From: an uncultured Bacteroidota bacterium
GTDB taxonomy: Bacteria; Bacteroidota; Bacteroidia; JABEUT01
Reading direction: 5' to 3'
Length of the DNA: 64,000 bases
Assembly: GCA_903863935.1 (NCBI GenBank)
Contig: CAIPDV010000042.1
Span: 68,869-132,868, forward strand
The notes under the pieces are model-generated. The model searched no databases. It was not told the origin of the DNA and saw only the letters and a program-made list of their open reading frames with translations. The position numbers and the translations under genes were made by a program. Position 1 is the stretch's first letter; each line of letters begins with the position of its first letter. Below, one piece after another: positions 4,706 through 62,694 of this stretch.

Positions 4706-5269
4706 TTATAGGTTCATGATTAATGGAAGAATAAACCACGACATAGCCAATCCACCAATAAAAAAGCAACACGTAGCAATCATGGATGGAACTTGGAGGT
4801 TAGATATCCCCATAATGGAATGGCCCGATGTGCAACCCTCGGCATACCGTGTTCCGAAGCCAACAAAGAAGCCGCCAATCACAATCATTATAAAGCCTTT
4901 TAAAGTAAGGAGCGAATGAAAATTGAATATTTCCATGGGATGAAGGCCTCCATAATTTTTAATTCCTAGAGCATTTAAATCAGCAACCGTACTCGGTGAA
5001 ATCCTCACAGGATTGGGGTTTTTAAATATCACTCCACCAAGGAAACCTCCGCCAATAATGCCGATGGCAATAACAACATTCCAGAATTCTTTTTTCCAGT
5101 CGTATTGGAAATAACTGGCTTTATTCGGGATGCAGGCAGCACAAATATGTTTTAAGGAAGAAGAAATTCCAAAAGGTTTGTTTCCTAAAAATAACAGGAG
5201 TGGAACCATCAAACCTATTGCCGGGCCTGCAATATACCAGGGCCAGGGCTGTGATAGTAATTCTTTCAT
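4706..5269 (-). CDS. YeeE/YedE family sulfur-compound transporter component (first half)
   Basis: Multi-TM protein with conserved Cys motifs ([23 protein letters not shown]) typical of thiosulfate-uptake YeeE/YedE halves. Confidence 0.65.
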
Positions 5270-5293
5270 ATGGCTTTAATTGGGGTTTAAGGT

Positions 5294-6097: not shown

Positions 6098-6121
6098 GTT
6101 TGCAAAAATAACAATTAAAAA

Positions 6122-11436: not shown

Positions 11437-11496
11437 AATTCCCTCTGATTAGCAGCAGTGTAGTTTTTCCTAACAATAAATGGAGTTTATTTTCGT

Positions 11497-43638: not shown

Positions 43639-43648
43639 TCTCTTTCAA

Positions 43649-44701: not shown

Positions 44702-44744
44702 AACAAAGCTAAGCTTTTCCTGACTTTATGAATTCCAAATGAGC

Positions 44745-47900: not shown

Positions 47901-49340
47901 CTAAAACTGGAAATAAATAAATTGCCTGTGCTCAAAAATTCCATATACCCCTATTACAAATATGGCTGCATAATAAACTGCCCACCTGATATATACCGGT
48001 TGCTTAAGAAACCTGTTTAACAACGAGTGATTTCTATAGAAATATTGTAATAACTCAAGAACAATTATTAAACCGAATGAAAGAACCAAATAGGAGTTTT
48101 TAACTCCCATAAACTGCAAGTGATGAAAATGCAACAGGTCGTTAAAACTAGTAAACATGTGCCCTGCAATGTAAAACGCATTTGAAATATTATTGGAAGC
48201 GAAAAATATGGTGGCAAAACCAACCAGTGTAAACGTACCAACAATAGAAAATATGCTATATTTCCGGATGCCTATGGCCGTTCGAAATGCCTTCCATGGT
48301 TTACGTGCCAGGGTACCTATCATTAAATAAACGCCGTTTATCACTCCCCACATAATGAAATTCCAACTGGCACCGTGCCAAAGCCCGACAAGAAAAAATA
48401 TTACAAACACATTAAAAAGGTGGCCGGGCACGCCTCTGTACTTTCTGCTCATTGGCATGAACAGGTAATCCCTGAACCAGGTGGATAATGATATATGCCA
48501 TCGTGTCCAAAATTCCGCGATTGTTTTTGACATGAATGGGTAGTTGAAATTCTGCATAAGTTTAATACCCATTACTCTTGCAGCCCCCCGGGCAATATCA
48601 GTATATCCGGAAAAATCGCAATAAATTTTATAGTTGCAAAATAAGGTAGCAATAACCAGGCTTATTCCATTAAAGTGATGAGGATCAGTATAAACATTAT
48701 CTATTAATATAGCCAACCGGTCAGCAATAACAACCTTTTTAAAGAGCCCCCAAGCCATCAAGCGCAACCCACTTGCAACATTCGCATAATCGAATTCGTG
48801 GTTCTGTTTTAATTGCGGAAGCAAATTCTGAGGTCTTTCAATTGGCCCGGCAACTAATTGCGGATAGAACATTACATACAGTGAGTATATCCCGAAGTGT
48901 CGCTCCGCCTTTTGGTTGCCACGATAAACCTCGATGGTATAACTCATGGCCTGAAACGTGTGGAATGAAAGCCCTATTGGAAGCAATATAGCCAGACCGG
49001 GGATTGGGTTAGCGACGTGAAAATTACCCAGAAGAAAAGTAAGGTTATCGTTCAAAAAATTATAATACTTGAAAACCGCCAGCACGCCTATGTTTGCAAC
49101 AAGGCTACAAGTCAAATAGAGTTTTCTTCGTTTGCCCTGGGCACCTTCAATAAAAATCCCGGCGAAATAATCAATAACAATGGTAAAGCCCAGTATCAGT
49201 ATATATATTGGCACAAAGGCCATATAGAAATAACAACTGGCCGCAAGCAGAAGCACCCATCTCCATTGGTGTGTTAAACTAAAATAGAGCACCGTTACAA
49301 TTACAAAAAAATAGAGAAACTGCAGGGAGTTAAAGAGCAT
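47901..49340 (-). CDS. MBOAT-family membrane O-acyltransferase (AlgI/DltB-like)
   Basis: Signature WTRWHISLSTWFRDYLF and the conserved His in GLWHGASWNF. 479 aa, polytopic. Confidence 0.8.
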   Translation of the reverse strand: MLFNSLQFLYFFVIVTVLYFSLTHQWRWVLLLAASCYFYMAFVPIYILILGFTIVIDYFAGIFIEGAQGKRRKLYLTCSLVANIGVLAVFKYYNFLNDNLTFLLGNFHVANPIPGLAILLPIGLSFHTFQAMSYTIEVYRGNQKAERHFGIYSLYVMFYPQLVAGPIERPQNLLPQLKQNHEFDYANVASGLRLMAWGLFKKVVIADRLAILIDNVYTDPHHFNGISLVIATLFCNYKIYCDFSGYTDIARGAARVMGIKLMQNFNYPFMSKTIAEFWTRWHISLSTWFRDYLFMPMSRKYRGVPGHLFNVFVIFFLVGLWHGASWNFIMWGVINGVYLMIGTLARKPWKAFRTAIGIRKYSIFSIVGTFTLVGFATIFFASNNISNAFYIAGHMFTSFNDLLHFHHLQFMGVKNSYLVLSFGLIIVLELLQYFYRNHSLLNRFLKQPVYIRWAVYYAAIFVIGVYGIFEHRQFIYFQF

Positions 49341-49550: not shown

Positions 49551-50624
49551 GTGAGCTCCGACCACCCGATAAACGCCAAGGAAATTAATAATATCCCAAT
49601 GTTATTTATTTTAGGCAATGCGCGCTCTGGCACTACACTTCTACAGGTATTGCTTGATGCACATCCGGAAATAGTCGGAAGCCCTGAATCGAAATTTGCA
49701 GTCTTATTTTACCCAAGATATAAGCATATAAAAAAGTGGAAAGAATCTGATATCATTGATTTTGTAGAGCATTTATATAAGGAACCATTGTTTGTTCAGT
49801 TATGGCATTTGGATAAGGAAAAACTAAAAAAAGAGTTATTGAAAGTGAAGGAAAATGCCACCTATTCTTTGCTTTGCAAAATGGTGTACTATCAAATGCG
49901 AAATGGGAAAAATAATCCGTTGTATCTTTCTGATAAGAACCCTGAATACACTCTTTATATTGATACAATTTTAAAAATGTTTCCGGAGGCAAAGTTTATA
50001 CATATCATTCGGGAACCGAGGGATACGATTTACAGCCAGATGATTTCCTTCAAAGAAAAGAATTCCAAATTCAAAGCCTTTAAATGGTTAGCATTTAATA
50101 CAATTGTAGAGGGAAAAAAGAAAAAAGATCCGGAGCGATATTTTACACTGCTTTATGAAAACCTGGTGAATGATACGGAAGCAACCATGAAAGATTTATC
50201 ATCCTTTTTAAACATTCCATTTTCAGCCTCAATGGCTCAAAACAAAAGCCCTGAGTGGTTAAATGCTCATCTGGAAAAAAATGTGCTCACCGAAAATGCA
50301 AAACCATTTTATGCAAATCTTCTGAAACCAATTAACCCTTCTAAAATCGGGAATTGGAAAAACCACATGGATGTTTATGATCAGACATTAGCGGAGATAA
50401 TTACCGGAGATTTTGCTCACAAAATGTATGGGTATGAAATTGACAGCAACCATAAAAACAAACCGGTAAAAATTTCTGCATACTCGCTGTTTAAAGGCAA
50501 TTGCCTTTACTTTTTCTGGCAAATGTTTAAGCAGGTAAAGGTCAAATCTACCCGCCTGAATTTGTTATATGCCAGGTTCCGAATCATGCTCAATCCGAAT
50601 GTTCGAATTTCGAAGTTTTTCTGA
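49551..50624 (+). CDS. PAPS-dependent sulfotransferase, ST4
   Basis: GNARSGTTLL and IREPRDTI. Confidence 0.8.
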   Translation: MSSDHPINAKEINNIPMLFILGNARSGTTLLQVLLDAHPEIVGSPESKFAVLFYPRYKHIKKWKESDIIDFVEHLYKEPLFVQLWHLDKEKLKKELLKVKENATYSLLCKMVYYQMRNGKNNPLYLSDKNPEYTLYIDTILKMFPEAKFIHIIREPRDTIYSQMISFKEKNSKFKAFKWLAFNTIVEGKKKKDPERYFTLLYENLVNDTEATMKDLSSFLNIPFSASMAQNKSPEWLNAHLEKNVLTENAKPFYANLLKPINPSKIGNWKNHMDVYDQTLAEIITGDFAHKMYGYEIDSNHKNKPVKISAYSLFKGNCLYFFWQMFKQVKVKSTRLNLLYARFRIMLNPNVRISKFF

Positions 50625-50664
50625 TAAAGTTCCTTCCGATATCGAATAATAAGTTCTGAATTAT

Positions 50665-51726
50665 ATGAATAATCCCGGGTTAAGAGAAATAGAAGAGATA
50701 AGGAAGATACCCATGCTTCTAATATTCGGGAAAGGTCGTTCTGGTACTACATTATTACAATCTGTGCTTAATGCTCATCCGAGCGTTGTAGCTCCACCCG
50801 AATCTAAATTTATGATGGTGCTTTATCCCAAGTTCAGAAGCATAAAAAAATGGAGCGAAAAGGATGCATTAAGTTTTGTTGAAGAAGTATTCAATTTTCC
50901 GACTTTCAACAACCGCTGGCACATGGATAAAGAAGTTGTAACTTCCTATATTATGGCTGCAAGGGAACAACTTGATTATGCACTGGCCTGCAAAATTATC
51001 TATTATATATGGGGAGAAAAAAGAACCGTACTTTATTTATCAGATAAAAATCCGGATTATTATCTATTCACTAAAAAACTATTCAAACTTTATCCCGAAG
51101 TAAAATTCATACATCTGGTTAGAGAACCAAGAGATAATGCGCTGAGTACATTTAAGGCATTCGAGAGCAAAAGCCCATTCTACGCAGCATTTAAATGGGT
51201 TGCAGTAAATTCCATTATGGATAAGCTGGTAAAGAAAATGCCCGGGAAAGGAATTACAGTTTTTTATGAAAACATGGTGGAGAATCCCGAGGCCTTTTTT
51301 AAAAATATCTGTGGCTTTCTGGATATACCTTATGTGCCTGAAATGCTAAACCGCGATATGCCTGAAAAGTTCTACAAAGACAAAACGGTAATGGAAGCAA
51401 TTTTAAAAAAGCAGAATAAACTTTTCACCCCTATCACTCCATCTTCAGTTGGGAAATGGAAAACCGATTTAAAGCCATTCGCCATTGCAGTTACTGAGAA
51501 AATTACGGGGAAATATGCATTAGAAAACTATAAATACACAGTAGGTTCTGAAGAAGGAAAAAATGTTTCAGTAAGCTATTTTAAGATTCTAAAGGGAAGC
51601 TGTATTTATTACGGATGGCAAGCATTTACTCGCTTCCGCTATACATCCTTCAGATTAAATAAAACATATTCATGGTTGAGGCGAAAACTAAGCGGGGGCA
51701 AGCTATTGCCCTGGCAATATTACTAA
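50665..51726 (+). CDS. PAPS-dependent sulfotransferase, ST5
   Basis: GKGRSGTTLL and VREPRDNAL. Confidence 0.8.
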   Translation: MNNPGLREIEEIRKIPMLLIFGKGRSGTTLLQSVLNAHPSVVAPPESKFMMVLYPKFRSIKKWSEKDALSFVEEVFNFPTFNNRWHMDKEVVTSYIMAAREQLDYALACKIIYYIWGEKRTVLYLSDKNPDYYLFTKKLFKLYPEVKFIHLVREPRDNALSTFKAFESKSPFYAAFKWVAVNSIMDKLVKKMPGKGITVFYENMVENPEAFFKNICGFLDIPYVPEMLNRDMPEKFYKDKTVMEAILKKQNKLFTPITPSSVGKWKTDLKPFAIAVTEKITGKYALENYKYTVGSEEGKNVSVSYFKILKGSCIYYGWQAFTRFRYTSFRLNKTYSWLRRKLSGGKLLPWQYY

Positions 51727-52910
51727 GCAGTTTTTGCAACTCTGAATCGCTTGCCGAAAGAAAGAAGCCTTTTCTCGAATAATTGATAAGATACTGCCGC
51801 TATGCCAATTGTTGAGAGTATTGTAGTCAAATAGTAAATCAAATTCATTTGCCACCCGGCTATTTGCCTGCCAGCTATTTTTTCAATTAATTCCATAGCC
51901 AAAATCCTCATGATTGGGCTATACATATAGAGCCCATACGATATTTTCCCCAGATAATTCATCCATGGGAAATCAAGTTTAATAATGGATTTAGGATTAG
52001 CAGCAAGGTTAACAATAATGCACATAAAGAGAACAGAATACCATTCGTAATTCATACTGGGAAAGCTTTCCCGGCCAATGGCTCGTAACCCAATTCTTGA
52101 AAACAACAGACCAAGAGTTAAAAGGTATATCCCAAACTGTACATCTCTCCTGAATAAAAAAGAAAGCACTTTTTTATTTTCCGTAATTACCAAATACGCG
52201 CCTATTCCTCCAATAGCCATGCTGCTTATGCGGTATTGCACAGACATGCTTCGCAAGAACTTGAAAATATTTTCACTGGCCAACGAACCATTAAATAATG
52301 GCTCACATAGGAGCACTGCATTGCGGAGCAATATAATTCCCGCAATAATCAGTATGAACAATTTTAAATAATTCTTTGCCCTTTTTAAAAATAAAGGCCA
52401 GCACAAATAAAATACTTCTTCTACCCCGATTGACCATATAGGGCCAATCGTTTGCGGAAGTCCGGTAGCAGTCCTCACGATTGGGCTTAAGAACAAAATA
52501 CAACCGATAAAATACAGCCAAAAATGTTTATAAATATGAAATGAATACGCGGTACTGAAATAGGCATCTAAATGTGGCAACACAAAAAAACCTAAAATGA
52601 CAATTAAAAAGTAAAGGGGCCAAATACGTAATGTTCTGCGTAAATAAAATGCCTTAAGGTCAATAGTATTTGTTTTCTTCTTTTCCTGAAGCAACAGGAA
52701 TGTTATCAGAAAACCACTGAGCACAAAGAATAATGTCACGTCCATTTCTCCCGTAGGATGGAAATAGCGGATCCATGGAATCACCTCCCGGCCATGCTTG
52801 AATTTAATGTCCTCAATATGAAGAATGATAATAATGAGCGAGCCTACGAACCTCAATCCGTCCAGATTTGGGAAGTATTTCCGTTGATTTGGACTGAGAT
52901 CTTTTTCCAC
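51723..52910 (-). CDS. Acyltransferase family 3 membrane O-acyltransferase, copy b
   Basis: YFPNLDGLRFVGSLIIIILH. Paralog of 40602..41738. Confidence 0.75.
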   Translation of the reverse strand: MEKDLSPNQRKYFPNLDGLRFVGSLIIIILHIEDIKFKHGREVIPWIRYFHPTGEMDVTLFFVLSGFLITFLLLQEKKKTNTIDLKAFYLRRTLRIWPLYFLIVILGFFVLPHLDAYFSTAYSFHIYKHFWLYFIGCILFLSPIVRTATGLPQTIGPIWSIGVEEVFYLCWPLFLKRAKNYLKLFILIIAGIILLRNAVLLCEPLFNGSLASENIFKFLRSMSVQYRISSMAIGGIGAYLVITENKKVLSFLFRRDVQFGIYLLTLGLLFSRIGLRAIGRESFPSMNYEWYSVLFMCIIVNLAANPKSIIKLDFPWMNYLGKISYGLYMYSPIMRILAMELIEKIAGRQIAGWQMNLIYYLTTILSTIGIAAVSYQLFEKRLLSFGKRFRVAKTA

Positions 52911-52922
52911 TAAAATTAAGTC

Positions 52923-54014
52923 TTAAGCCGCGTTTGTTTTCAGGTTTTTTAACCTTTCTTTTTCTGCTTTCTCTTTCAGATAATCGTCTAGCTTTCCTGA
53001 TTCCGCAAGGTGTACAAGATTATTGTCCTTCTTAACCAATTTGTAGCTTTTCCAGATGGGAGGATGGAGGGCAAATAAATCTAAAAAGGTATATAACGGA
53101 GATATTTTGAAAGAGTAGAACGGTGCTACCCAACGGTACCCAACACCAATGGAGTCGGAACCATTTTTTACGGTATGCCAGTAAAATGGAGGGTTCCAGA
53201 ACACATCTCCCGGTTTAAGGCTAACGGATATCCCGTCAATATATTTATATAACTCATTCGGGGGACTGAAATCAGTATTGAAAGGATCGAAGGGCATATT
53301 ATTTTTGGCCCTGAAAGGCGCATTACGATAAATATTTCGTACCGGATCCGGGTCAATTATCGGAGTGTAATAATGGGAATATAAAACCCAGTTCTTTTCT
53401 CCGTAGGTCTGCACAAATAAATTTGGCGCATTAGCATTATGCAGATAAGAAACTGTTCCCTTCCCACCAATAAAAAGCTGAAAAGAATCAAAAAAAGTAA
53501 ACCCCTTTCTCCTCTCAAGAAGCCAGCTATAATCAAAGTCTTTAATGTGTTCCGGATGATGATCGAGCAATGGATAAAAACGATAGTACTTGCCACCTCC
53601 GCTCCGAATGTTATCAAGCACTTCGCCAAGGGTGGTGGTTTCGTAATTCTTCATATCCGATTGGTCAGTCACCATCATAATTTCATCTGAACCATGCAAC
53701 TCTTTAAAATAGTCGAGAGACCATTTCTTTACGCAATCCCATTCTTTTGCAGCACCCTCCATAACAACAGGAATGCCCTTCTTCACGTAGTGATTAAAAA
53801 ATTCTTCCTTACTTAGATTAGTTCTTCTATCAATTGGAAATATCTTCCCTTCCCCACTCTTTTTGAGGGTTTCAAGCAGATTACGGTAGAATTTTTTACG
53901 GCGTTTCCCAAGAAGTTTAAATACCCTTGCCCTACCAACAAATTGATCAAGGATTTGATATATCCCATATTCAATTCGTTGACCTGCTTTTATATTTCTT
54001 CTGAAATCGCCCAT
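52923..54014 (-). CDS. Cupin-like/JmjC-domain protein (putative Fe/2OG hydroxylase), copy a
   Basis: 363 aa. Cupin_8/JmjC-like architecture (…VVMEGAAKEWDCVKKW… FYWHTVKN…). It is a tandem paralog of 54054..55127, with about 65-70% identity by eye. Confidence 0.5.
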   Translation of the reverse strand: MGDFRRNIKAGQRIEYGIYQILDQFVGRARVFKLLGKRRKKFYRNLLETLKKSGEGKIFPIDRRTNLSKEEFFNHYVKKGIPVVMEGAAKEWDCVKKWSLDYFKELHGSDEIMMVTDQSDMKNYETTTLGEVLDNIRSGGGKYYRFYPLLDHHPEHIKDFDYSWLLERRKGFTFFDSFQLFIGGKGTVSYLHNANAPNLFVQTYGEKNWVLYSHYYTPIIDPDPVRNIYRNAPFRAKNNMPFDPFNTDFSPPNELYKYIDGISVSLKPGDVFWNPPFYWHTVKNGSDSIGVGYRWVAPFYSFKISPLYTFLDLFALHPPIWKSYKLVKKDNNLVHLAESGKLDDYLKEKAEKERLKNLKTNAA

Positions 54015-54053
54015 TAATACCTAATTAATACTGACAAATATAAAATAATTCCA

Positions 54054-55127
54054 TTAAGATTTTTGTGCGGCTTCTTGCTCAGCTTTATCTTTCAAATATT
54101 TGTCCAAATTACCATATTCCGCTAAATGTACAAGGTTTATATCCTTTTTATACAGTGAATATGACTTCCAAAATGGAGGATTGGTGGCCAGCATATCCAG
54201 GAACATATATAGCGGAGCTATTTTGAATGAATATAATGGCGGCAGCCAGCGATAACCGACCCCAATTGAGTCAGTATTGTTCCTGACACAATGCCAATAA
54301 AATGGAGGATTCCAAAGAACATCACCGGGATGAAGATGTACAGAAAGCCCATCAATATATTTATAAAGAGAGTAAGGTTTTTCATAGTCCGGATTAAATG
54401 GGTCGAATTGCCCTATATCATTTCTCTTAGGCCCATTACGGTAAACATTGCGAACTGGATCGGGGTCAATTATCATCGTATGATATTGCGAGTATAAAAT
54501 CCATTCCTTTTCTCCATAGACCTGAACAAAGAGATTGCATTGGTTCGCGTTATGCAAATCGGTTACAGAGCCTTTCCCCCCAATAAATACCTGGAATGCT
54601 TCAAACCATGTCCTTGGGTTTCTGCGTTCGCGCAACCATTTATAATCGAAATCTTTTAAATGCTCCGGATGCCTGTCCAGCAATGGATAGAAACGATAGT
54701 ATTTGCTGCCACCCGAACGGATATTATCGATAACATTTCCCAATGTTGTCTCTTCGTAAGGATAGCCCGGTTTATCTACTTCAACCCTAACAATCTTATC
54801 ATCTCCATGAAGGTCTTTAAAGTATTCTAGCGACCATTTTTTAACACAATCCCAATCTTTTGCTGCACCTTCCAAAACTACGGGAATACCTTTTTTAACG
54901 TATTCGTTGATAAACTCCTCTTTGCTTAAATTGGCTCTCCTCTGAATAGGTATTATTTTCCCTTCTCCACTCTTTTTAAGTGTTTCCGTAAGGTTTTTGT
55001 AAAATTTCTTCCTTCGCTTCCCAAGGAGTTTAAATACCCTTTTCCTTCCAATAAATTGGTCTAATATCTGATAAAACCCATACTCAATACGCTGACTTGT
55101 TTTAATATTTCTCCTGAAATCCCCCAT
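54054..55127 (-). CDS. Cupin-like/JmjC-domain protein (putative Fe/2OG hydroxylase), copy b
   Basis: 357 aa. Begins MGDFRRNIKTSQRIEYG..., nearly identical to the N-terminus of copy a. Confidence 0.5.
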   Translation of the reverse strand: MGDFRRNIKTSQRIEYGFYQILDQFIGRKRVFKLLGKRRKKFYKNLTETLKKSGEGKIIPIQRRANLSKEEFINEYVKKGIPVVLEGAAKDWDCVKKWSLEYFKDLHGDDKIVRVEVDKPGYPYEETTLGNVIDNIRSGGSKYYRFYPLLDRHPEHLKDFDYKWLRERRNPRTWFEAFQVFIGGKGSVTDLHNANQCNLFVQVYGEKEWILYSQYHTMIIDPDPVRNVYRNGPKRNDIGQFDPFNPDYEKPYSLYKYIDGLSVHLHPGDVLWNPPFYWHCVRNNTDSIGVGYRWLPPLYSFKIAPLYMFLDMLATNPPFWKSYSLYKKDINLVHLAEYGNLDKYLKDKAEQEAAQKS

Positions 55128-55248
55128 TTGAACAGCATTTATAAATACAAATGTAAAATAAAAACATAATTTATCACGTTAGTAGCCAAAAGCCTACCTT
55201 TTAAGCTGTGTATGGAAAATATTAACTTTGTGAAAATTACGTAAACAA

Positions 55249-56250
55249 TTGGGCGCTTATATTAAAGCTGTGAGTTATTATATGCCTGAAAAGGTTCTTA
55301 CCAATGAGGAATTATCGGTCATATTTCCTGAATTCAGTACCGATGAAATATTCAGAAGATCGGGAGTAAGAACACGTCATATTTCTGCTGAACATGAACT
55401 TGCTTCAGATATGGCTGTTGTTGCAGCGGAAAAATTGTTTTCGGAAAGTAGCATTCAAAAAAACGAGATAGGCTTTACTCTTTTTTGTGCTGAAATTTTA
55501 GATAGAACCGCACCTGCAACAGCTTGTATTTTGCAAAACAGAATCGGGCTTCCTAAACAATCTGGTGCAATGGACATCCCCATGGGATGTTCAGGCTTTA
55601 TGTATGGGTTATTATTAGCAAAATCTTTGGTTTGCAGCAATGCAGTCGACAACGTTCTTTTACTCACCGGGGAATGTGAAACCAAAACAATACACCCGGC
55701 TGACCATGAACTGCGTATGATTTTCGGAGATGGCATGGCAGCAACCATTATTAGCCGTAATGAAGATAATTCGATTGGTGATTTTGTAATTGGAACAGAT
55801 GGTAGTGGTTGGGAAAATTTAGCAGTAAGAGGCTGCAATGCCAGAGAATTAGCTAGCGTAGAGTGGCTAAAAGAAAATGAGAGTGCAGGTGGTATGCCTT
55901 ATGGAAGGCTTACTATGAATGGAACAGAAATACTTAATTTCACCCTGAAAAACGTGCCAAAAATGGTGAACGAAGTATTGGAAAAAGAGAAACTGACAAT
56001 GGACAATATCGACCTGGTTATTTTTCACCAGGCAAGTGGGTTTATGTTGGAAGTATTGAGAAGAAAAATGAAAATACCTAAAGAAAAATTCTTTACCAAT
56101 ATTGCAGAAAAAGCGAATACCGTTTCAGCAACTATACCCATCGCATTGCGCGATGCAATGGATGCAGGCCTTGTTAAAAAAGGGAATAAAGTTTTGCTCG
56201 CAGGCTTCGGTATTGGTTATTCATGGGGTGCTACAGTTATTACAATTTAA
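55249..56250 (+). CDS. 3-oxoacyl-ACP synthase III family (FabH-like KAS III), copy a
   Basis: Active-site Cys in MGCSGFMYGL. His and Asn regions are present (IFHQASGFM; N-T-x-S-A-T). Confidence 0.8.
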   Translation: MGAYIKAVSYYMPEKVLTNEELSVIFPEFSTDEIFRRSGVRTRHISAEHELASDMAVVAAEKLFSESSIQKNEIGFTLFCAEILDRTAPATACILQNRIGLPKQSGAMDIPMGCSGFMYGLLLAKSLVCSNAVDNVLLLTGECETKTIHPADHELRMIFGDGMAATIISRNEDNSIGDFVIGTDGSGWENLAVRGCNARELASVEWLKENESAGGMPYGRLTMNGTEILNFTLKNVPKMVNEVLEKEKLTMDNIDLVIFHQASGFMLEVLRRKMKIPKEKFFTNIAEKANTVSATIPIALRDAMDAGLVKKGNKVLLAGFGIGYSWGATVITI

Positions 56251-56261
56251 TAAGAAGATAT

Positions 56262-56504
56262 ATGGGGATAGAAGATCTACTAAAACAATTACAAGCAGAA
56301 TTTGAAGATATTCCTGCAGGAACTTTAAAACCCGAAACTAAAATTTCTGATATTGAAGGCTGGGGTTCCATGCACGCATTGATAGTTATTGCGCTTGCCG
56401 ATACCGAATATGGCGTTACGATAAAAGGTGATGAACTCCGCAAAGTACAATCGGTTCAGGAATTATATGATTTGATAATTGAAAAACAAAAAAATCCGGA
56501 GTAA
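56262..56504 (+). CDS. Acyl carrier protein (about 80 aa)
   Basis: A helical protein of about 80 aa with a putative phosphopantetheine Ser in DIEGWGSMHAL. The ATG at 56262 avoids overlapping the FabH gene. The ORF-track start at 56223 is rejected. Confidence 0.6.
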   Translation: MGIEDLLKQLQAEFEDIPAGTLKPETKISDIEGWGSMHALIVIALADTEYGVTIKGDELRKVQSVQELYDLIIEKQKNPE

Positions 56505-56510
56505 GTAAGT

Positions 56511-57566
56511 ATGGCATTTTTCTCGGTTGAAAATATTCGCATTAAAGGTATTGGCGCAGCCGTTCCTAAGAAAGAAATTTCTAATTGGGATTATACCTAC
56601 ATTTCAGAGTCGGACAGAAAGCTACTAATAAAAACAACAGGTGTTGAGAAGCGCAGATCTATTGGTGATAGCGGAGTAACTGAAACCGACCTTGCCAAAG
56701 CGGCTGCCGAAAAATTACTTATTGAAACCGACACACTTAAAGACGAAATTGAAATTTTAGTTTTTGTTTCTCAAACTCCCGATTACTTTTTACCTGCCAG
56801 TAGTATATTGTTGCAAAACCGATTGGGGCTAAAAAAGAGCTGCATGGCTTTTGATATTAACCTTGGGTGCTCCGGATATGTATACGGACTCTCTGCTATC
56901 AGTTCAATAATGAGCAGTGGCAAGTTCAAAAAAGGTCTTTTATTAGCAGGCGACACGTCTACCATTGGAACACCCTGGGAAGATAAAAGTGTTTATCCTT
57001 TGTTTGGAGATTCAGGCACTGCTACTTTGCTTGAATATGATGAAACAGCCGGAAAAACTACCTTCAGCCTGAATTCGGATGGTTCCGGATATGAGGCTAT
57101 TATTGTGCGAGACGGGGGGACAAGAAGCCCCTATACCAAGGAATCGTTTGAAATAAAAGAAAGAAATCAGGGAGTACTTCGTGCTGACCGCAACCTGGAA
57201 CTAAACGGGATGGAAGTGTTCAATTTTTCAGTAACTGTGGTACCAAAACACCTTGATGAATTTTTACAGAAGACTATTACAACTCCTGATTCATACGATT
57301 TTTTTGTAATGCACCAGGCCAATTTGCTTATGAATGAAACCATCCGGAAAAAATTAAAATTTCCTCCCGAGAAAGTCCCTTATTCCATACAAAAATTTGG
57401 TAATACAAGTTCGGGGTCCATTCCTCTAACCATAGTTTCTGAATTGAAAGATAAGGTTGCAGGTGAAAAAAATTTCCTGATGTCAGGCTTTGGAGTTGGC
57501 TTGTCATGGGCCACTGTTTCTCTGAAAACTAATAACTTAATTTGCACCGATATTGTTGAAATATAA
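56511..57566 (+). CDS. 3-oxoacyl-ACP synthase III family (FabH-like), copy b
   Basis: NLGCSGYVYGL active-site Cys, FVMHQANL His region, NTSSGS Asn region. Confidence 0.75.
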   Translation: MAFFSVENIRIKGIGAAVPKKEISNWDYTYISESDRKLLIKTTGVEKRRSIGDSGVTETDLAKAAAEKLLIETDTLKDEIEILVFVSQTPDYFLPASSILLQNRLGLKKSCMAFDINLGCSGYVYGLSAISSIMSSGKFKKGLLLAGDTSTIGTPWEDKSVYPLFGDSGTATLLEYDETAGKTTFSLNSDGSGYEAIIVRDGGTRSPYTKESFEIKERNQGVLRADRNLELNGMEVFNFSVTVVPKHLDEFLQKTITTPDSYDFFVMHQANLLMNETIRKKLKFPPEKVPYSIQKFGNTSSGSIPLTIVSELKDKVAGEKNFLMSGFGVGLSWATVSLKTNNLICTDIVEI

Positions 57567-57568
57567 GA

Positions 57569-58318
57569 ATGACTACGCCGTTTCATCTAACCAATAAAAC
57601 TATATTTATTACCGGTGCATCATCCGGCATTGGCAGGCAGATTGCCATTTCCTGTAGTGCAATGGGGGCAAAAGTTATTATCAGCGGGCGAGATGAAGAA
57701 AGGTTGAATGAAACCCTTGCATTACTTCAGGGAGAAGGGCATTCACAGTTTACTTCAGACTTGACAGATGAAAAACAACGCAATGATTTAATTGACCTGA
57801 TACCAGGTATTGATGGCTTTGTTCACTCTGCAGGAATAGTTCTTCCTGTTCCTGTTAAATTCATTGCAGAAAAACATTTGAGAAGCGTGATGGGAATTAA
57901 TTTTGAGTCTGCAGTGCTTACAGTAGCAAGGCTTCTCAAAAATAAAAAGCTGAATGAAAAAGCTTCGTTGGTTTTCTTTTCTTCTGTTTCGGTAAATCAT
58001 CCGTATAGTGGAGGTTCATTGTATACCGCATCCAAAGGGGCCATTGAAGCATACAGTAAAAACCTAGCACTTGAGATCTATCAAAAGAAAATGCGTTCGA
58101 ATGTAATTGTCCCTGCAATGGTAAGAACCCCCTTATATGAGGAAACCATTAACCAGGGCATGTACAGAAATGTTGAAGAATATGAAAGCAAATATCCCCT
58201 TGGAATAGGAAGACCCGAAGATGTTGCAAATGCGGCGGTGTACCTGCTTTCAGATGCATCGTGCTGGGTGACCGGAACAAATTTATTACTGGATGGTGGA
58301 TTTACAATTGGCAAATAA
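57569..58318 (+). CDS. SDR-family oxidoreductase (FabG-like 3-oxoacyl reductase)
   Basis: TGASSGIGRQIA Rossmann motif, YTASKGA catalytic YxxxK. 249 aa. Confidence 0.8.
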   Translation: MTTPFHLTNKTIFITGASSGIGRQIAISCSAMGAKVIISGRDEERLNETLALLQGEGHSQFTSDLTDEKQRNDLIDLIPGIDGFVHSAGIVLPVPVKFIAEKHLRSVMGINFESAVLTVARLLKNKKLNEKASLVFFSSVSVNHPYSGGSLYTASKGAIEAYSKNLALEIYQKKMRSNVIVPAMVRTPLYEETINQGMYRNVEEYESKYPLGIGRPEDVANAAVYLLSDASCWVTGTNLLLDGGFTIGK

Positions 58319-58329
58319 AAACTGTTGAA

Positions 58330-59259
58330 ATGGCTGAACAACCAAAAAAAATATCGATTGTAATTCCGGTTTATAATGCTTCTACAGTTTTGATAGAACT
58401 GCAAAAAAGGATTGACGGCGTTTTTAAAGAAATTAATATTCCTTACCAACTTGTTTTGGTAGATGATTGTTCCAGAGATGACAGTTGGAGCGTAATTAAG
58501 GAAATAAAAAGCCAATTTCCTGAAAACATTACCGCAATAAGGCTTGCCAAAAATTTCGGCCAGCATAATGCTATTGCATGCGGCTTTCATTATTGCTCCG
58601 GTGATTATATAATTACAATGGATGACGACCTTCAGCATCCGCCGGAAGAAATACCAAAGCTCATAAAAAAAGCTACTGAAAATGGTGCTGATGTAGTATA
58701 TGGTATATCAGATAAATACAAAAGGTCTTTGCTTAGAAATACAACAAGCATAGTATTTAAAGTTACCACGAAATATACTTCTGCCAGCACAGGTAATGGC
58801 TCTCCATTCAGGATAATCAAGAAAAGTATTGTAAAAAAAATCATCACGCACAATCAGCAATTTGTTTTTATTGATGAACTTATTTCATGGTACACCAAAA
58901 ATATTGAATTTGTGGTGGTAGACCATAAAGCCTCCGGTCTTAAAGCCTCACGTTACTCTGGTTATAAATTGATGAACCTTTACTTTAATTTGGTGTTCGG
59001 GTACAATGCCCTGCCATTGCGATTAATAACTTATCTGGGTCTTATTGCATCCTTCATTTCATTTTTAGTAGGGCTTTTCTTTTTTATCAAAAAGATGTTT
59101 TTCAATGTCAGGGTAGGATTTACCGGTATAGTTGTGAGTATAACTTTTACAGCTGGTATAATTCTCCTTAGCATTGGCGTTATTGGCGAATACATGCGCA
59201 GAATGTATAACATTCTTAATGCTCAGCCGCAACATTCAATCGGCGAAATTTTAGAATAA
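58330..59259 (+). CDS. GT2 glycosyltransferase of the polyprenyl-phosphate sugar synthase type (ArnC/GtrB/DPM1-like) with two C-terminal TM helices, GT2-b
   Basis: ISIVIPVYNAS, VLVDDCSRDDS and ITMDDDLQHPP motifs, plus two C-terminal TM helices. ATG at 58330 (MAEQPKK) is chosen over the ORF-track start at 58261. Confidence 0.75.
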   Translation: MAEQPKKISIVIPVYNASTVLIELQKRIDGVFKEINIPYQLVLVDDCSRDDSWSVIKEIKSQFPENITAIRLAKNFGQHNAIACGFHYCSGDYIITMDDDLQHPPEEIPKLIKKATENGADVVYGISDKYKRSLLRNTTSIVFKVTTKYTSASTGNGSPFRIIKKSIVKKIITHNQQFVFIDELISWYTKNIEFVVVDHKASGLKASRYSGYKLMNLYFNLVFGYNALPLRLITYLGLIASFISFLVGLFFFIKKMFFNVRVGFTGIVVSITFTAGIILLSIGVIGEYMRRMYNILNAQPQHSIGEILE

Positions 59260-59260
59260 C

Positions 59261-59938
59261 ATGCTTATCCGCAAGTACGGAATCACCCTTAAAAGACTCA
59301 AGGAAGAGGATATTGAACTTGTGCGTGAAATGCGTAATTCTACTGTTATTTCAAGAACCATGGCTTATCGGGAACACATTACTCCTGAAATGCAGAAAAA
59401 GTGGTTTGAATCCATCAATAATAAATACAACGGATACTTTATAATTGTTTATGAGGGGAAAAAAATAGGCCTGATAAACGGCAAAAATATTGACTTTGAA
59501 AAAAGATGCTGTGAAGGCGGGATTTTTATCTGGGATGAACATTATAAAAACACAATTGTTCCCGGGCTGGCTTCCATAATCATGAACGATTGGACCTTCC
59601 TCATCATTAATTTTAATGTCATTTATGCGAAGGTTCTTCAAGAAAATGGCAATGCACTCACATATGACAAACTGATGGGATACGAGCCATGCCAGCCTCT
59701 GACAGATGAAAAAGGGGTGCAATGGCTAAAACTTACAAAGGAAAATTATTTACGAAAAGTGAAATTACTGCGAAAAAGTTTCCTGCAAAACTTTGGTGGG
59801 GTTGAACCATTGACACCCCTCGATGTTGATGCATCAGATGATTTGGGTAAAGAAATTAACCTCTTCTATACAGGACTCCCAACCGATATTCAGGAAAAAG
59901 CAGATGAGTTGCTGGAAAGAGCAAGAAGTAAGTCATAA
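59261..59938 (+). CDS. GNAT-family (RimL-like) N-acyltransferase
   Basis: N-terminal ITLKRLKEEDIELV is typical of RimJ/RimL-type GNATs. 225 aa. Confidence 0.4.
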   Translation: MLIRKYGITLKRLKEEDIELVREMRNSTVISRTMAYREHITPEMQKKWFESINNKYNGYFIIVYEGKKIGLINGKNIDFEKRCCEGGIFIWDEHYKNTIVPGLASIIMNDWTFLIINFNVIYAKVLQENGNALTYDKLMGYEPCQPLTDEKGVQWLKLTKENYLRKVKLLRKSFLQNFGGVEPLTPLDVDASDDLGKEINLFYTGLPTDIQEKADELLERARSKS

Positions 59939-60021
59939 TTCCTAAATATTCTTAATTCTTCCCTTCTACTTCTTAATTTTTGTGTCTTATTACTACATTT
60001 GCAGTTTAACCACAAGCGGAT

Positions 60022-62118
60022 ATGCCCCAGACCATGACAGCTAAAAGTGAATCGGTTGGTTCTGTACCTGTAAATTCTGTAATCAGAGCATTTGAACTCA
60101 TGTGCACGGCCAAGGCTATGACTGAGATATTTGAAAAGAATGCTGCTGTTACAAGTAAATATGTTCATGCCACTTCCCGCGGACATGAAGCCATACAAAT
60201 TGCATTGGGCTTGCAACTGAAGCCACAGGATTACCTAAGTGCTTATTATCGCGATGACAGTATTCTTCTTTCAATTGGAATGACACCATATGAGCTTATG
60301 CTTCAATTAATGGCAAAAGCTGATGACCCATTCTCCGGTGGAAGAACCTACTATTGCCACCCAAGTTTGCGAAGGGATAATATGCCTAAAATTCCGCACC
60401 AGTCCTCGGCGACAGGAATGCAGGCCATACCCACAACAGGTATAGCCATGGGAATTCAATACCAGGAAAAAAGAGGACTGCTTCCTTCCTATGAAGATGG
60501 AAAACCAATCGTAGTTTGTTCGTTGGGAGACGGCTCTGTTACCGAAGGTGAAGTAGCAGAAGCTTTTCAGATGGCGGTTTTGAAAAAACTGCCGATATTA
60601 TATTTAGTGCAGGATAACGATTGGGATATTTCAGCAACCGGCAAAGAAACCCGTGCCATGGATGCAGTGGAGTATGCAAAAGGGTTCAAAGGGCTGGAAA
60701 CACGCAGCATAGATGGCACCGACTTTATGCGCAGCTATCAAACCTTGCGCGAGGTTATCCATACCATTCGTGAAGAACGCAGACCGTTTTTAGTTCATGC
60801 AAAAGTGCCATTGCTTAACCACCACACCTCAGGTGTACGTAAAGAATGGTACCGGGCAGATCTGGAAGAAGCAGCAAAACGCGATCCATATCCGCGACTA
60901 AGAAGCCAGCTTTTAATTGCAGGCTTCACACAGGATAAGATAAAACAAATTGAAGCAAAAGAAACCGCCGCAGTTGCAGAAGCTTACGAAATGGCCCTTA
61001 AAGCTGCCGATCCAAAACCGGAAGATCTGTTCAAACATGACTTTGCACCAACCCCAGTTACAGAAGAAAAAGGAGTACGTGAACCTGAAGGCGGAGAAAA
61101 AAAGGTAATGGTTGATTGTGCTCTTTTTGCTATAAGGGAATTGATGGAAAAACATCCGGAGTGCTTATTTTATGGCCAGGATGTTGGAGGACGCCTTGGT
61201 GGCGTATTCCGCGAGGCAGCTACCTTGGCCCAGCAATTTGGTGACGACAGGGTATTTAATACGCCTATACAGGAAGCATTTATTGTCGGTAGTACAGTAG
61301 GTATGTCGGCTACTGGCTGCAAACCCATTGTGGAAATTCAATTTGCCGATTATATATGGCCCGGACTTAACCAGTTATTTACAGAAGTAAGCCGCTCCTG
61401 TTATCTGACAAACGGAAAATGGCCCGTGAGTTGTATTATCCGTGTACCCATTGGTGCGTACGGCAGCGGCGGACCATATCACTCTTCAAGTGTAGAGTCT
61501 GTATTAACCAATATCCGGGGAATTAAAATTGCTTATCCTTCAACGGGAGCTGACTTAAAAGGCTTGCTGAAATCCGCCTACTATGACCCGAATCCGGTAG
61601 TGATGCTGGAACACAAAGGTCTTTATTGGTCGAAGATAAAGGGAACTGAAGATGCAAAAACGGTAGAACCGGATGCCGATTATATTATTCCATTTGGGAA
61701 AGGCCGAATCGTTCAAAGTGCTGAGGCGTCACAAACCCTTAAAGGGGCTTCCACTGTAACTGTAATCACCTATGGTATGGGAGTTTATTGGGCACAAAAT
61801 GCTGCTAAAAACTTCCCGGATAAAGTAGAGATCATTGATCTGCGAACACTATATCCATTGGATGAAGAACTGATTTTTTCTTCTGTAAAAAAACACAGCC
61901 GTTGCATCGTACTTACGGAAGAACCTGTTAACAATGGCTTTGCACAATCCATTGCTTCACGCATACAGCAAAATTGTTTTGAATATTTGGATGCTCCGGT
62001 TACCGTAATTGGTTCTGAAAATATGCCGGCAGTTCCACTTAATACAATTTTAGAACAAACCATGTTACCTAATGCCGGCAAGGTTTCTGTAGCCATTGAA
62101 AAAATTTTAGCCTACTAA
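60022..62118 (+). CDS. 2-oxoacid (branched-chain alpha-keto acid) dehydrogenase E1 component, fused alpha/beta subunits
   Basis: 698 aa. ThDP-binding GDGSVTEGE...NDWDIS in the N-terminal half and a transketolase-like beta domain in the C-terminal half. Confidence 0.8.
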   Translation: MPQTMTAKSESVGSVPVNSVIRAFELMCTAKAMTEIFEKNAAVTSKYVHATSRGHEAIQIALGLQLKPQDYLSAYYRDDSILLSIGMTPYELMLQLMAKADDPFSGGRTYYCHPSLRRDNMPKIPHQSSATGMQAIPTTGIAMGIQYQEKRGLLPSYEDGKPIVVCSLGDGSVTEGEVAEAFQMAVLKKLPILYLVQDNDWDISATGKETRAMDAVEYAKGFKGLETRSIDGTDFMRSYQTLREVIHTIREERRPFLVHAKVPLLNHHTSGVRKEWYRADLEEAAKRDPYPRLRSQLLIAGFTQDKIKQIEAKETAAVAEAYEMALKAADPKPEDLFKHDFAPTPVTEEKGVREPEGGEKKVMVDCALFAIRELMEKHPECLFYGQDVGGRLGGVFREAATLAQQFGDDRVFNTPIQEAFIVGSTVGMSATGCKPIVEIQFADYIWPGLNQLFTEVSRSCYLTNGKWPVSCIIRVPIGAYGSGGPYHSSSVESVLTNIRGIKIAYPSTGADLKGLLKSAYYDPNPVVMLEHKGLYWSKIKGTEDAKTVEPDADYIIPFGKGRIVQSAEASQTLKGASTVTVITYGMGVYWAQNAAKNFPDKVEIIDLRTLYPLDEELIFSSVKKHSRCIVLTEEPVNNGFAQSIASRIQQNCFEYLDAPVTVIGSENMPAVPLNTILEQTMLPNAGKVSVAIEKILAY

Positions 62119-62130
62119 ATAAACCGACCT

Positions 62131-62694
62131 ATGAAATACGCTTCTTTATCGTTATTCCTGCTTTCATTATTTGTAATGCTGCAAAGCACATCCTGCAAGT
62201 TTGGAAATAAATTCCCGAAAGAAACAAGGACACTTGATAGCTTGCAAATACTAGTTATTAAAGCTGACTCAGCAGTTAAATTAATTGATTCGGCTAAAAT
62301 CACCGGGTATGCAACTATTGTAATGAACGACAACCAATTGATTCAAATGGCGCATTTGGACAGTATGAGCCCTTCATCAGCAGATATTTTCAGACAATTT
62401 AACAAGGTTCGGTGGGACTTATTGACTGTTGCAGGCAAAAGAGGCCCACTGCTAATCGAACTCAGAAAATCGCAAAAACAATTAGACCACCTTAGCCATG
62501 ATATAACCAATAACCTTGTGGCAAAAGATAGTGTGCCTATATATGTTGGATTTGAAAGCAAAAAAGCTTCGGAACTGGTGCAGGTTTCAAATATCTCAGT
62601 TGCAGAGGTAAATCAGGAAATTCCTAAATTTACAATGCTTGCCCCGAAAGCCGATTCGCTTATGACCCTTATTAAGGAGCATAAAAAGATTTAA
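62131..62694 (+). CDS. Hypothetical lipoprotein (187 aa)
   Basis: Lipobox-like LQSTSC after a hydrophobic N-terminus. Confidence 0.4.
   Translation: MKYASLSLFLLSLFVMLQSTSCKFGNKFPKETRTLDSLQILVIKADSAVKLIDSAKITGYATIVMNDNQLIQMAHLDSMSPSSADIFRQFNKVRWDLLTVAGKRGPLLIELRKSQKQLDHLSHDITNNLVAKDSVPIYVGFESKKASELVQVSNISVAEVNQEIPKFTMLAPKADSLMTLIKEHKKI

Follow-up and report, generated by a model that had tools for sequence, protein, structure and literature searches.

Six co-directional open reading frames (ORFs) occupy positions 55249-59938 on the plus strand of a 64-kb stretch of contig CAIPDV010000042.1 from an uncultured Bacteroidota bacterium (64,000 nucleotides; the whole stretch is hereafter called the window). 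They encode, in order, a β-ketoacyl-ACP synthase III (KAS III), an acyl carrier protein (ACP), a second KAS III, a short-chain dehydrogenase/reductase (SDR), a family 2 glycosyltransferase (GT2), and an N-acyltransferase of the GNAT family, separated by 11, 6, 2, 11, and 1 bp. A first reading of this DNA, made from its letters alone (the sequence-only reading), had described a six-gene operon; its coordinates and gaps are confirmed by the ORFs and by independent gene calls on identical public metagenome contigs, which give the same genes and spacing, and its domain assignments for the six products are borne out by matches in Pfam, NCBIfam, and the Protein Data Bank (PDB). Catalytic residues are intact in all six products:

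55249-56250, plus strand: FabH1 (333 aa, TTG start), condensing enzyme of the KAS III type and the variable, "starter" ketosynthase
56262-56504, plus strand: dedicated acyl carrier protein (80 aa, motif GWGS36M)
56511-57566, plus strand: FabH2 (351 aa), the KAS III that is the cassette's conserved core
57569-58318, plus strand: predicted SDR-family β-ketoacyl reductase (249 aa; adh_short_C2, E 5e-44)
58330-59259, plus strand: ArnC/GtrB-type GT2, predicted polyprenyl-phosphate sugar synthase (309 aa, two C-terminal transmembrane helices)
59261-59938, plus strand: GNAT N-acyltransferase, proposed acyl-ACP:amino-sugar N-acyltransferase (225 aa, conserved C-terminal extension)

For FabH1, the TTG at 55249 is preferred as the start over the ATG chosen by the gene callers, because the residues from TTG to ATG align with the N-terminal strand of E. 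coli FabH.

The cassette is widespread. A genome scan found relatives of FabH2 in 528 species genomes; the best 80 of the 528, which were examined as loci, belong to Bacteroidota of several orders and have FabH2 identities of 51-96%, the closest match being "Umea_bin-09912" (96%). Cultured carriers turned up by the scan include Aequorivita viscosa CGMCC 1.11023, Mesonia aquimarina MCCC 1A11700, and Haloflavibacter putidus. A gammaproteobacterial copy of the cassette also exists. Altogether 83 loci were annotated by BLAST against reference proteins and by de novo clustering, and 67 of them were well flanked; among these 67, with neighbors scored within 10 kb, the counts are:

All six cassette genes: 55 of 67
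The five cassette genes without FabH1: 62 of 67
Sulfotransferase: 42 of 67
TMTC/PMT_2-like membrane protein with tetratricopeptide (TPR) repeats: 42 of 67
AspH-family or Cupin_8 Fe/2OG-type (iron/2-oxoglutarate) oxygenase: 36 of 67
DegT (WecE-type) aminotransferase: 19 of 67
Fused E1 subunit of a 2-oxoacid dehydrogenase: 6 of 67
Any of sulfotransferase, TMTC-like GT-C enzyme, hydroxylase, or DegT: 58 of 67

Dozens of distant genomes repeat this gene order, which puts the arrangement far beyond chance; the gene order and its linkage in relatives are direct observations. No FabD, FabF, FabZ, or FabI partner appears among the recurrent gene families of the related loci, and this, together with the conserved glycan-related context, rules out a housekeeping fab cluster. 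The sequence-only reading had itself raised such a cluster, unlinked to sulfotransferases in relatives, as an alternative; the sulfotransferase count above refutes it. Among small ORFs near the cassette in the 83 loci, none is conserved besides the ACP and its antisense shadow, and a RiPP or lipopeptide precursor was rejected as a candidate on that ground.

Both ketosynthases match ACP_syn_III (PF08545; E 4e-18 for FabH1 and 2.5e-16 for FabH2) and ACP_syn_III_C (PF08541; E 7e-29 and 7e-23). A Cys-His-Asn triad is invariant in 65 FabH1 and 82 FabH2 orthologues, at positions aligned with C112, H244, and N274 of E. coli FabH. FabH1 scores above the cutoff of PRK09352 (259.5 bits; cutoff 249) and FabH2 below it (232.5 bits); neither reaches the housekeeping fabH model TIGR00747 (235.3 and 193.7 bits; cutoff 292.1). 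The PDB entry nearest FabH2 is 4efi. FabH1 is the more variable of the pair, its orthologues being only 38-57% identical, and in most of the 65 the residue that corresponds to E. coli Phe87 is Gly, Ala, or Thr. Seven loci of Bacteroidales and Lentimicrobiaceae (L048, L059, L061, L063, L071, L073, and L081) hold a cassette variant that lacks FabH1 and encodes proteins with an AMP-binding and a PP-binding domain (often several), plus a free AMP-binding enzyme, a B12-binding radical SAM enzyme, and a Wzx-like flippase gene between two sulfotransferase genes, which suggests that the variant may use a different starter acid and more tailoring.

NCBIfam scores rule out an OleA or HMG-CoA synthase identity for the KAS III pair. 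They likewise exclude DarB: the DarB/StlD models NF053539 and NF005293 (cutoffs 550 and 450) give 45-54 bits for FabH1 and 21-26 bits for FabH2, and the matches cover short stretches only. KAS III-like enzymes and an ACP occur in flexirubin and dialkylresorcinol clusters of Bacteroidota, and this gene content and the weak partial matches to the DarB models are what a DarB/StlD-type dialkylresorcinol, a flexirubin-type pigment, or another polyketide pathway would have in its favor. With no score exceeding 54 bits, with neither DarA nor any aromatase, dehydratase, or lipid-carrier gene turning up when the window was annotated with Pfam or the related loci were surveyed by gene family, and with sugar-metabolism enzymes as the genes conserved alongside the cassette, we hold a pathway of this kind to be extremely unlikely.

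The 80-aa ORF alone has no Pfam match at the default threshold (PF00550, 17.6 bits; gathering score 20.8). A profile of 20 orthologues matches solved ACPs (2lml, E 2e-7), and all 20 match PF00550. Trp34 and Ser36 are invariant and fall at the phosphopantetheine site, Ser36 opposite the DSL serine of solved ACPs, so the modifiable serine, whose lack the sequence-only reading had named as a possible refutation, is present. At least 97% of 70 SDR orthologues keep each of the GxxxGxG motif, Arg41, and the catalytic triad of Ser139, Tyr152, and Lys156, and the enzyme is probably NADPH-dependent. The ORFs scanned with Pfam in the 40.6-62.7 kb interval yielded no domain of a dehydratase, enoyl reductase, or thioesterase, in agreement with what had been read from the sequence.

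The GT2 matches ArnC (9hwj, E 1e-46) and GtrB (5ekp, E 6e-42) over residues 5-308; its two transmembrane (TM) helices lie at about residues 227 and 260, and at least 97% of 67 orthologues retain D46, D50, and the DxD motif D98-D99-D100. These features assign it to the enzyme class of ArnC, while its NF007986 score, below cutoff, sets it apart from ArnC orthologues. The GtrB/ArnC-like polyprenyl-phosphate function proposed earlier is supported indirectly, by the full-length structure matches and by the flippase candidates and the GT-C enzyme found beside the cassette in relatives.

The GNAT matches Acetyltransf_3/4 in Pfam, and its top NCBIfam match is PseH (E 1.6e-16, below cutoff). As a single sequence it resembles SpeG or PseH; a profile of its family, which comprises 108 clusters at E<=1e-30, finds FdhC as the best solved relative (5kta, E 1e-10, nearly full length), followed by SpeG and PseH (PseH at E 8.5e-7). 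The GNAT gene starts 1 bp past the GT2 gene in the window, the two overlap in relatives, and natural GT2-GNAT fusion proteins exist with a GNAT of the cassette type at the C-terminus: P0232 (425 aa), whose GT2 domain was compared directly and is 45% identical to the window GT2 over residues 11-124, and P0248 (414 aa), whose fusion is deduced from the position of its GNAT match. Both enzymes therefore appear to share a substrate stream.

The recurrent TPR-bearing partner in relatives spans the membrane with about 10 TM helices, carries an HPxHTE motif and, in its first loop, an invariant DD, and ends in TPR repeats; 15 of 26 members match TMTC_DUF1736 and 10 of 26 match PMT_2. Because of this topology, these motifs, and these matches, it is classified from sequence as a TMTC/PMT-like GT-C enzyme, a class that uses polyprenyl-phosphate sugar donors. 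A profile search of the PDB found no solved relative of the TMTC-like N-terminal domain; ArnT is the nearest solved homologue of the membrane (N-terminal) halves of TMTC proteins, and proteins are glycosylated by TMTC-type enzymes (PMC7801869). Two GT-C-like proteins flank the gammaproteobacterial cassette, one of which weakly matches PMT_2. The DegT protein of Aequorivita scores above the cutoffs of both WecE models (490 bits vs 375), which describe dTDP-4-amino-4,6-dideoxyhexose transaminases. Candidate flippases vary by lineage: Aequorivita has an ABC_membrane/ABC_tran protein, Bacteroidales a Wzx-like one. Some Flavobacteriales and Vicingaceae loci carry, downstream of the GNAT, a pair of paralogous polytopic membrane proteins (each about 540 aa, matching nothing in Pfam or NCBIfam; L008 13392-16966; L019/L021) at a position where a transferase or flippase might be sought. 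The sole GT-C-like gene of the window encodes a 410-aa protein with 10 TM helices (22609-23841, plus strand) that matches GT87 (PF09594, E 5e-18), a family of polyprenyl-phosphate-mannose-dependent GT-C mannosyltransferases; it lies 31 kb away from the operon and could be an acceptor-side transferase for a lipid-linked sugar.

The trio of FabH2, SDR, and ACP has its nearest known counterparts in sets that acylate amino sugars. These three proteins are 42, 42, and 48% identical to the copies of orfC, orfD, and orfB (KAS III, reductase, and ACP of the glycosylation-island type) encoded by Rickettsia peacockii pRPR, and 43, 43, and 39% identical to the KAS III, reductase, and carrier protein of a capsule-type (CPS) locus of Parabacteroides distasonis, which also holds the trio; FabH2 is 25% identical to E. 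coli FabH, and FabH1 is about 30% identical to the KAS III of pRPR, to that of P. distasonis, and to E. coli FabH. The pRPR genes are reported to be the closest relatives of orfs B, C, and D of the Pseudomonas aeruginosa flagellin glycosylation island (PMC2791219), which have been equated with acp, vioS, and vioR (PMC3927599). The Pseudomonas syringae homologues acp, vioS, and vioR act with vioA and vioB in making dTDP-N-(3-hydroxybutanoyl)viosamine; genetic and mass-spectrometric evidence shows that deletion of vioR abolishes N-(3-hydroxybutanoyl)viosamine on flagellin (PMC3927599). The likeness of the window trio to VioS and VioR is thus one measured through the pRPR homologues, with the equivalence taken from these two papers.

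Like the window, the viosamine island (vioA, vioS, vioR, acp, vioB, vioT, vioM; orfA-orfD in PAK) has a dedicated KAS III, ACP, and ketoreductase; it places a 3-hydroxyacyl group on the 4-amino group of a 4-amino-4,6-dideoxyhexose that comes from a WecE/VioA-type aminotransferase. The window differs in having a second KAS III and a GNAT in place of the LbH-type VioB, and in its proposed delivery of the sugar to polyprenyl phosphate by an ArnC-type GT2, not directly to flagellin by VioT. Its cassette keeps company with sulfotransferases, Fe/2OG oxygenases, and a TMTC-like GT-C enzyme, its hosts are Bacteroidota, and no flagellar genes were seen in the window or the related loci. A VioA/WecE-type 4-aminotransferase occurs within 10 kb in the 19 related loci listed above and not in the window. 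The pRPR and P. distasonis clusters have annotated acetyltransferases that look by eye like hexapeptide-repeat proteins.

Within the same phylum, the wfpC-wfpG genes of the Flavobacterium psychrophilum O-polysaccharide locus show an order of KAS, ACP, KAS, and ketoreductase identical to that of the window; the likeness of wfpC-F, judged from the published description only, consists in this order and in the lack of a dehydratase and enoyl reductase; no F. psychrophilum sequence is among the best 80 FabH2 loci. Together with the PglD-like WfpG, wfpC-F are predicted to provide the 3,5-dihydroxyhexanoyl group of the O-antigen, carried on Qui2NAc4N (PMC6519341), and two rounds of condensation and reduction without dehydration would account for the two ketosynthases. 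Unlike the window, the wfp locus is of the Wzx/Wzy O-antigen type, uses the PglD-like WfpG, and has no ArnC-type GT2, sulfotransferases, or TMTC-like gene reported. The viosamine/flagellin-island trio and wfpC-F are much nearer to the cassette than NodEF/NodA or DarB (DarB model, 45 and 21 bits vs 550), with which the sequence-only reading had compared it.

The later steps recall the Arn pathway for the aminoarabinose of lipid A (ArnB, ArnA, ArnC, ArnT), with its shared logic of a DegT-type aminotransferase, N-acylation at the level of the amino sugar nucleotide, loading onto undecaprenyl phosphate by an ArnC-type GT2, flipping, and a GT-C enzyme. In the window system the N-acyl group is proposed to be ACP-derived and GNAT-added, whereas in Arn it is a formyl group added by ArnA; the GT-C partner is a TMTC/PMT_2-type enzyme with TPR repeats; nothing like the deformylase ArnD was seen; and the sugar is probably a dTDP-6-deoxyhexose, unlike that of Arn. 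FdhC of Acinetobacter nosocomialis (5kta), the distant best solved relative of the GNAT profile, is a GNAT-fold sugar N-acyltransferase that reportedly transfers 3-hydroxybutanoyl to a dTDP-amino-dideoxyhexose; it takes an acyl-CoA donor and has no partner ACP, and the cassette GNAT is about 40 residues longer at its C-terminus. TMTC/PMT-type protein O-mannosyltransferases share with the cassette partner the polytopic N-terminal domain, the TMTC_DUF1736/PMT_2 matches, and the TPR repeats; the partner differs in being bacterial, in being absent from the window, and in its donor, which would be an acylated amino-deoxyhexose, not mannose. A literature search found no paper on the cassette or on its association with sulfotransferases and a TMTC-like enzyme. 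The chemistry proposed for it has clear precedents, and nothing in it contradicts established biochemistry.

We consider it probable that the cassette, widely conserved in Bacteroidota, makes an N-(β-hydroxyacyl) amino-deoxyhexose mounted on polyprenyl phosphate. Most likely this would be an N-(β-hydroxyacyl) 4-amino-6-deoxyhexose destined for periplasmic transfer, perhaps further hydroxylated and sulfated. From the precedents above we infer the substrates, chain length, order of steps, and acceptor as follows. The housekeeping FabD would malonylate the dedicated ACP; the conserved FabH2 and the variable FabH1 would carry out one or two decarboxylative condensations, and the SDR would reduce each β-keto group. 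Since no dehydratase or enoyl reductase is present, the product would stay hydroxylated, and by analogy it would be 3-hydroxybutanoyl-ACP after one round or 3,5-dihydroxyhexanoyl-ACP after two. The FdhC/PseH-like GNAT would then acylate the amino group of a nucleotide-activated 4-amino-4,6-dideoxyhexose, supplied in relatives by the adjacent WecE-type aminotransferase, and the ArnC/GtrB-type GT2 would load the acylated sugar on polyprenyl phosphate. After flipping, the TMTC/PMT_2-like TPR GT-C enzyme would transfer it to a periplasmic protein or glycan. OlsC/LpxO-like and JmjC-type oxygenases and five sulfotransferases encoded at 40.6-55.1 kb probably hydroxylate and sulfate the acyl-sugar. 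The sequence-only reading was thus right in outline, and is partly supported, in expecting a β-functionalized acyl group, an amino sugar, and a polyprenyl phosphate carrier; of the two acceptors that it had allowed, the FdhC/PseH-like GNAT and the WecE-type neighbors favor the amino sugar, and the amino acid is not favored.

The sequence-only reading had also linked the operon to branched-chain 2-oxoacid metabolism, through the E1 gene that follows the GNAT gene after a gap of 83 bp. This gene and the promoter-like boxes around the operon are:

60022-62118, plus strand: fused E1 alpha/beta of a 2-oxoacid dehydrogenase (698 aa; E1_dh, Transket_pyr, Transketolase_C)
55223-55230, plus strand: -7 promoter-like box of the Bacteroidetes type, TAACTTTG, which precedes the FabH1 start by 26 nt
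55148-55155, minus strand: mirror -7 promoter-like box for the divergent Cupin_8 genes (TAnnTTTG motif)
59994-60001, plus strand: -7 promoter-like box ahead of the fused E1, 28 nt upstream of the E1 start

The motif TAnnTTTG, which we take to be the Bacteroidetes -7 promoter consensus, occurs just 31 times on the plus strand of the window, and of its three matches between 54.9 and 62.8 kb, two are those that precede FabH1 (by 26 nt) and E1 (by 28 nt). We read the six genes as one transcription unit, with E1 apparently driven from its own promoter. A terminator scan made no terminator evident between the operon and E1; the scan for sigma-70 promoters and terminators gave no more matches than in shuffled sequence and is uninformative for a Bacteroidota genome. 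The fused E1 adjoins the cassette in 6 of the 83 loci, all of the window's own clade, and in one of them (L012) an opposite-strand gene lies between GNAT and E1. Because the pairing is rare, E1 has its own promoter-like box, and a gene intervenes in L012, coupling of E1 to the cassette was rejected, and the neighboring E1 is probably unrelated. In all six loci of the clade, E1 is kept together with the gene that follows it, for a 187-aa predicted lipoprotein (signal peptide ending in Cys, no family match), the pair spanning 60022-62694 on the plus strand of the window.

To call the fused E1 a branched-chain 2-oxoacid dehydrogenase (BCKDH) is an unproven assumption; its top NCBIfam matches are pyruvate dehydrogenase E1 models, all below cutoff. 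The functional tie to E1 is not supported, and hence neither is a branched chain; the β-hydroxy or β-oxo part of the predicted acyl group stands, indirectly, on the set of KAS III, ACP, and ketoreductase. The presence of two FabH-type enzymes, an ACP, and a FabG-like SDR, with E1 83 bp downstream, would also be expected of a housekeeping or auxiliary fatty-acid initiation module that draws branched primers from an adjacent BCKDH E1 and makes iso-fatty acids. Such a module is very unlikely: beyond the rarity of E1, its separate box, and the intervening gene, GT2 and GNAT always accompany the set, sulfotransferases and GT-C enzymes usually do, and FabD, FabF, FabZ, and FabI never do; FabH2 is nearer to the glycosylation-island KAS III (about 42%) than to E. 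coli FabH; and neither KAS III attains the cutoff of the housekeeping fabH model.

On the other side of the operon, the window holds further genes that may belong to the system:

52923-55127, minus strand: two tandem Cupin_8 (JmjC-type) Fe/2OG oxygenase paralogues (Cupin_8, E 9e-28 and 9e-22)
51723-52910 and 40602-41738, both minus strand: two copies of an Acyl_transf_3 membrane O-acyltransferase (PF01757, E 8e-25 and 7e-24, respectively)
49551-51726, plus strand: two sulfotransferase paralogues (Sulfotransfer_3, E 4e-36 and 9e-29)
47901-49340, minus strand: MBOAT (Pfam)
46965-47900, minus strand: DltD-like protein (Pfam)
45779-46894, minus strand: second GT2 (Pfam)
42595-43638 (plus strand), 43649-44701 (minus strand), and 44745-45782 (minus strand): three more sulfotransferase paralogues (Sulfotransfer_3, E 1e-28 to 1e-34)
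41740-42495, minus strand: Asp/Asn β-hydroxylase-family (AspH-family) oxygenase (PF05118, E 7e-36)

The Cupin_8 genes are divergent from the operon, and their products, whose best PDB relatives are JMJD5 (E 3e-19) and FIH, are probably tailoring hydroxylases; orthologues 55-68% identical to them adjoin the cassette in 17 loci. The AspH-family oxygenase, which adjoins the cassette in 32 loci, comes closest to OlsC (E 1e-32) and LpxO (E 9e-23), which hydroxylate acyl chains at position 2, although each match is below cutoff. The five sulfotransferase paralogues, of about 350 aa each, lie within 9 kb, and those at 42595-45782 are 29-35% identical to cassette-adjacent ones of Aequorivita and a gammaproteobacterium. 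Their family profile matches the protein tyrosine sulfotransferase TPST1 (E 8e-33) and the sulfotransferase domain of CurM (CurM ST; E 1.4e-32) about equally, a tie as to substrate class; no carbohydrate sulfotransferases are among the family-profile matches. CurM/OLS activating sulfotransferases act on a β-hydroxyacyl-ACP, which is the predicted product of the cassette, and sulfation at the acyl β-hydroxyl is one option that this likeness would allow. They differ from the window sulfotransferases, which are free-standing, come as multiple paralogues, score equally with TPST, and have no thioesterase for decarboxylative elimination.

These neighbors and the ketosynthases bear on a different end product, a membrane glycolipid or aminolipid. 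Here FabH1 or acyl-AMP ligases would prime a medium-length or long, possibly iso-branched acyl chain, FabH2 and the SDR would add one β-hydroxy unit, the GNAT would use this lipid to N-acylate an amino sugar or another amine, and the sulfotransferases would make the product a sulfated lipid. The Gly, Ala, or Thr in FabH1 where E. coli FabH caps its primer pocket, the AMP-binding and PP-binding didomain proteins of the FabH1-less Bacteroidales variants, the likeness of the AspH-family neighbor to lipid acyl 2-hydroxylases, the place of CurM ST (which sulfates β-hydroxyacyl-ACP) among the two nearest solved sulfotransferase relatives, and the 2-oxoacid dehydrogenase E1 next to the cassette in the window's clade all agree with a lipid of this kind. 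We nevertheless judge it unlikely, for the conserved trio is homologous to the glycosylation-island and capsule trios, of which the counterpart characterized in P. syringae yields a C4 acyl group; the flippase candidates, together with the ArnC-type GT2 and the TMTC-like GT-C enzyme, indicate a carrier-linked sugar that is handed on and not an end-product lipid; and E1 adjacency is confined to 6 of the 83 loci.

The protein-directed relatives of the tailoring enzymes raise the question of direct protein or peptide modification, in which the GNAT would pass the ACP-borne acyl group to a polypeptide amine, as in GNAT-dependent lipopeptide maturation. That polypeptide would also be the substrate of the JmjC/AspH hydroxylases and the TPST-like sulfotransferases, and the sugar attached by the GT2/TMTC-like pair would be an ordinary one. 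JMJD5 and FIH, nearest to the Cupin_8 pair, are protein hydroxylases; a protein tyrosine sulfotransferase is the joint-best relative of the sulfotransferases; TMTC-type enzymes glycosylate proteins (PMC7801869); and the GNAT is like SpeG-type amine acetyltransferases as well as sugar N-acyltransferases. Against these stand the ACP as the only conserved small ORF near the cassette in the 83 loci, FdhC as the best solved relative of the GNAT family, the recurrence of a WecE-type sugar aminotransferase as a neighbor, and the GT2-GNAT fusions, which imply a common substrate stream, and we regard direct modification as quite improbable.

Several points weigh against an N-acylated, carrier-linked amino sugar as well. 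The aminotransferase, flippase, and TMTC-like genes are not in the 64-kb window (tblastn with DegT, TMTC-like, GT-C-like, and ABC transporter queries; nothing at E<1) and would therefore have to lie elsewhere in the genome. The GT2 is far under the cutoff of the ArnC equivalog NF007986 (188.7 vs 529 bits; E 1e-55), and we know of no precedent for a dTDP-sugar donor in the ArnC/GtrB-type GT2 class. The GNAT, for its part, is below the PseH cutoff and also SpeG-like, its donor and acceptor being putative, and the known analogues acylate with LbH acyltransferases (VioB, WfpG), not with a GNAT. The small residue of FabH1 at the Phe87 position may admit a chain that exceeds C4-C6, and the starter may be longer where acyl-AMP ligase/carrier didomains replace FabH1 in the Bacteroidales variants. 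TPST and CurM ST, the solved enzymes nearest to the sulfotransferases, and JMJD5 and FIH, those nearest to the Cupin_8 proteins, have proteins or acyl-ACP as substrates, not sugars.

The Acyl_transf_3 genes, homologues of which also occur in some related clusters, are included in the system from position only. The same holds for the second GT2, the DltD-like protein, and the MBOAT, which are probably glycan-modifying accessory genes; an MBOAT with a DUF1574-like partner is found in L061 and L071, and an MBOAT alone in L065 and L077. The MBOAT/DltD-like pairing (46965-49340, minus strand) is as in DltB/DltD or AlgI/AlgJ, and in the Dlt system the MBOAT receives the acyl group from a carrier protein; by that analogy the acyl group on the cassette's ACP could have a second destination in this pair. 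A sulfur-related set at 4284-7144 on the minus strand (two Sulf_transp halves, a TauE/SafE-type sulfite exporter, and a SoxA/TsdA-like dihaem cytochrome c) may or may not be linked to the sulfotransferase load 35 kb away. Large type IX secretion cargo proteins with SprB repeats, NHL, PKD, and CHU_C or Por_Secre_tail domains are encoded at 7357-15198 (plus strand) and 38979-40418 (minus strand), with PorP/SprF just outside the window on the source contig; they are candidate periplasm-transiting acceptors. Elsewhere, a 378-aa soluble protein without a Pfam match (37190-38326, minus strand) adjoins a phosphoribosyltransferase, and a 456-aa protein (15581-16951, minus strand) has a weak Swt1-like HEPN match (E 1e-5).

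The cassette, then, is a good experimental target by virtue of its wide conservation and its partnership with TMTC-like enzymes and sulfotransferases, and its analysis corrects a tempting but unsupported tie to branched-chain 2-oxoacid metabolism. KAS III/ACP/reductase sets that make hydroxyacyl amino sugars have precedents in flagellin glycosylation islands and O-antigen loci, where the known cases pass a soluble nucleotide sugar to a conventional glycosyltransferase; here such a set is joined to a GNAT and an ArnC-type lipid-carrier step. As a tentative proposal, which we hold to be possible and no better than that, the cassette may define an undescribed periplasmic glycosylation system of many Bacteroidota and a few Proteobacteria, in which the cassette and its sulfotransferase and oxygenase partners would assemble, on polyprenyl phosphate in the cytoplasm, a single sugar, an N-(polyhydroxyacyl), possibly sulfated 4-amino-6-deoxyhexose, and a bacterial TMTC-like GT-C enzyme with TPR repeats would hand it to proteins or envelope glycans. 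If true, this system would be a bacterial counterpart of eukaryotic TMTC O-glycosylation that employs an anionic, acylated amino sugar. If the pathway is right, a phylum of major importance in the environment and in hosts would have an uncharacterized modification of its envelope or proteins, probably an anionic one; bacterial TMTC-like enzymes would gain a first functional handle; and the GNAT would be a sugar acyltransferase that depends on an ACP.

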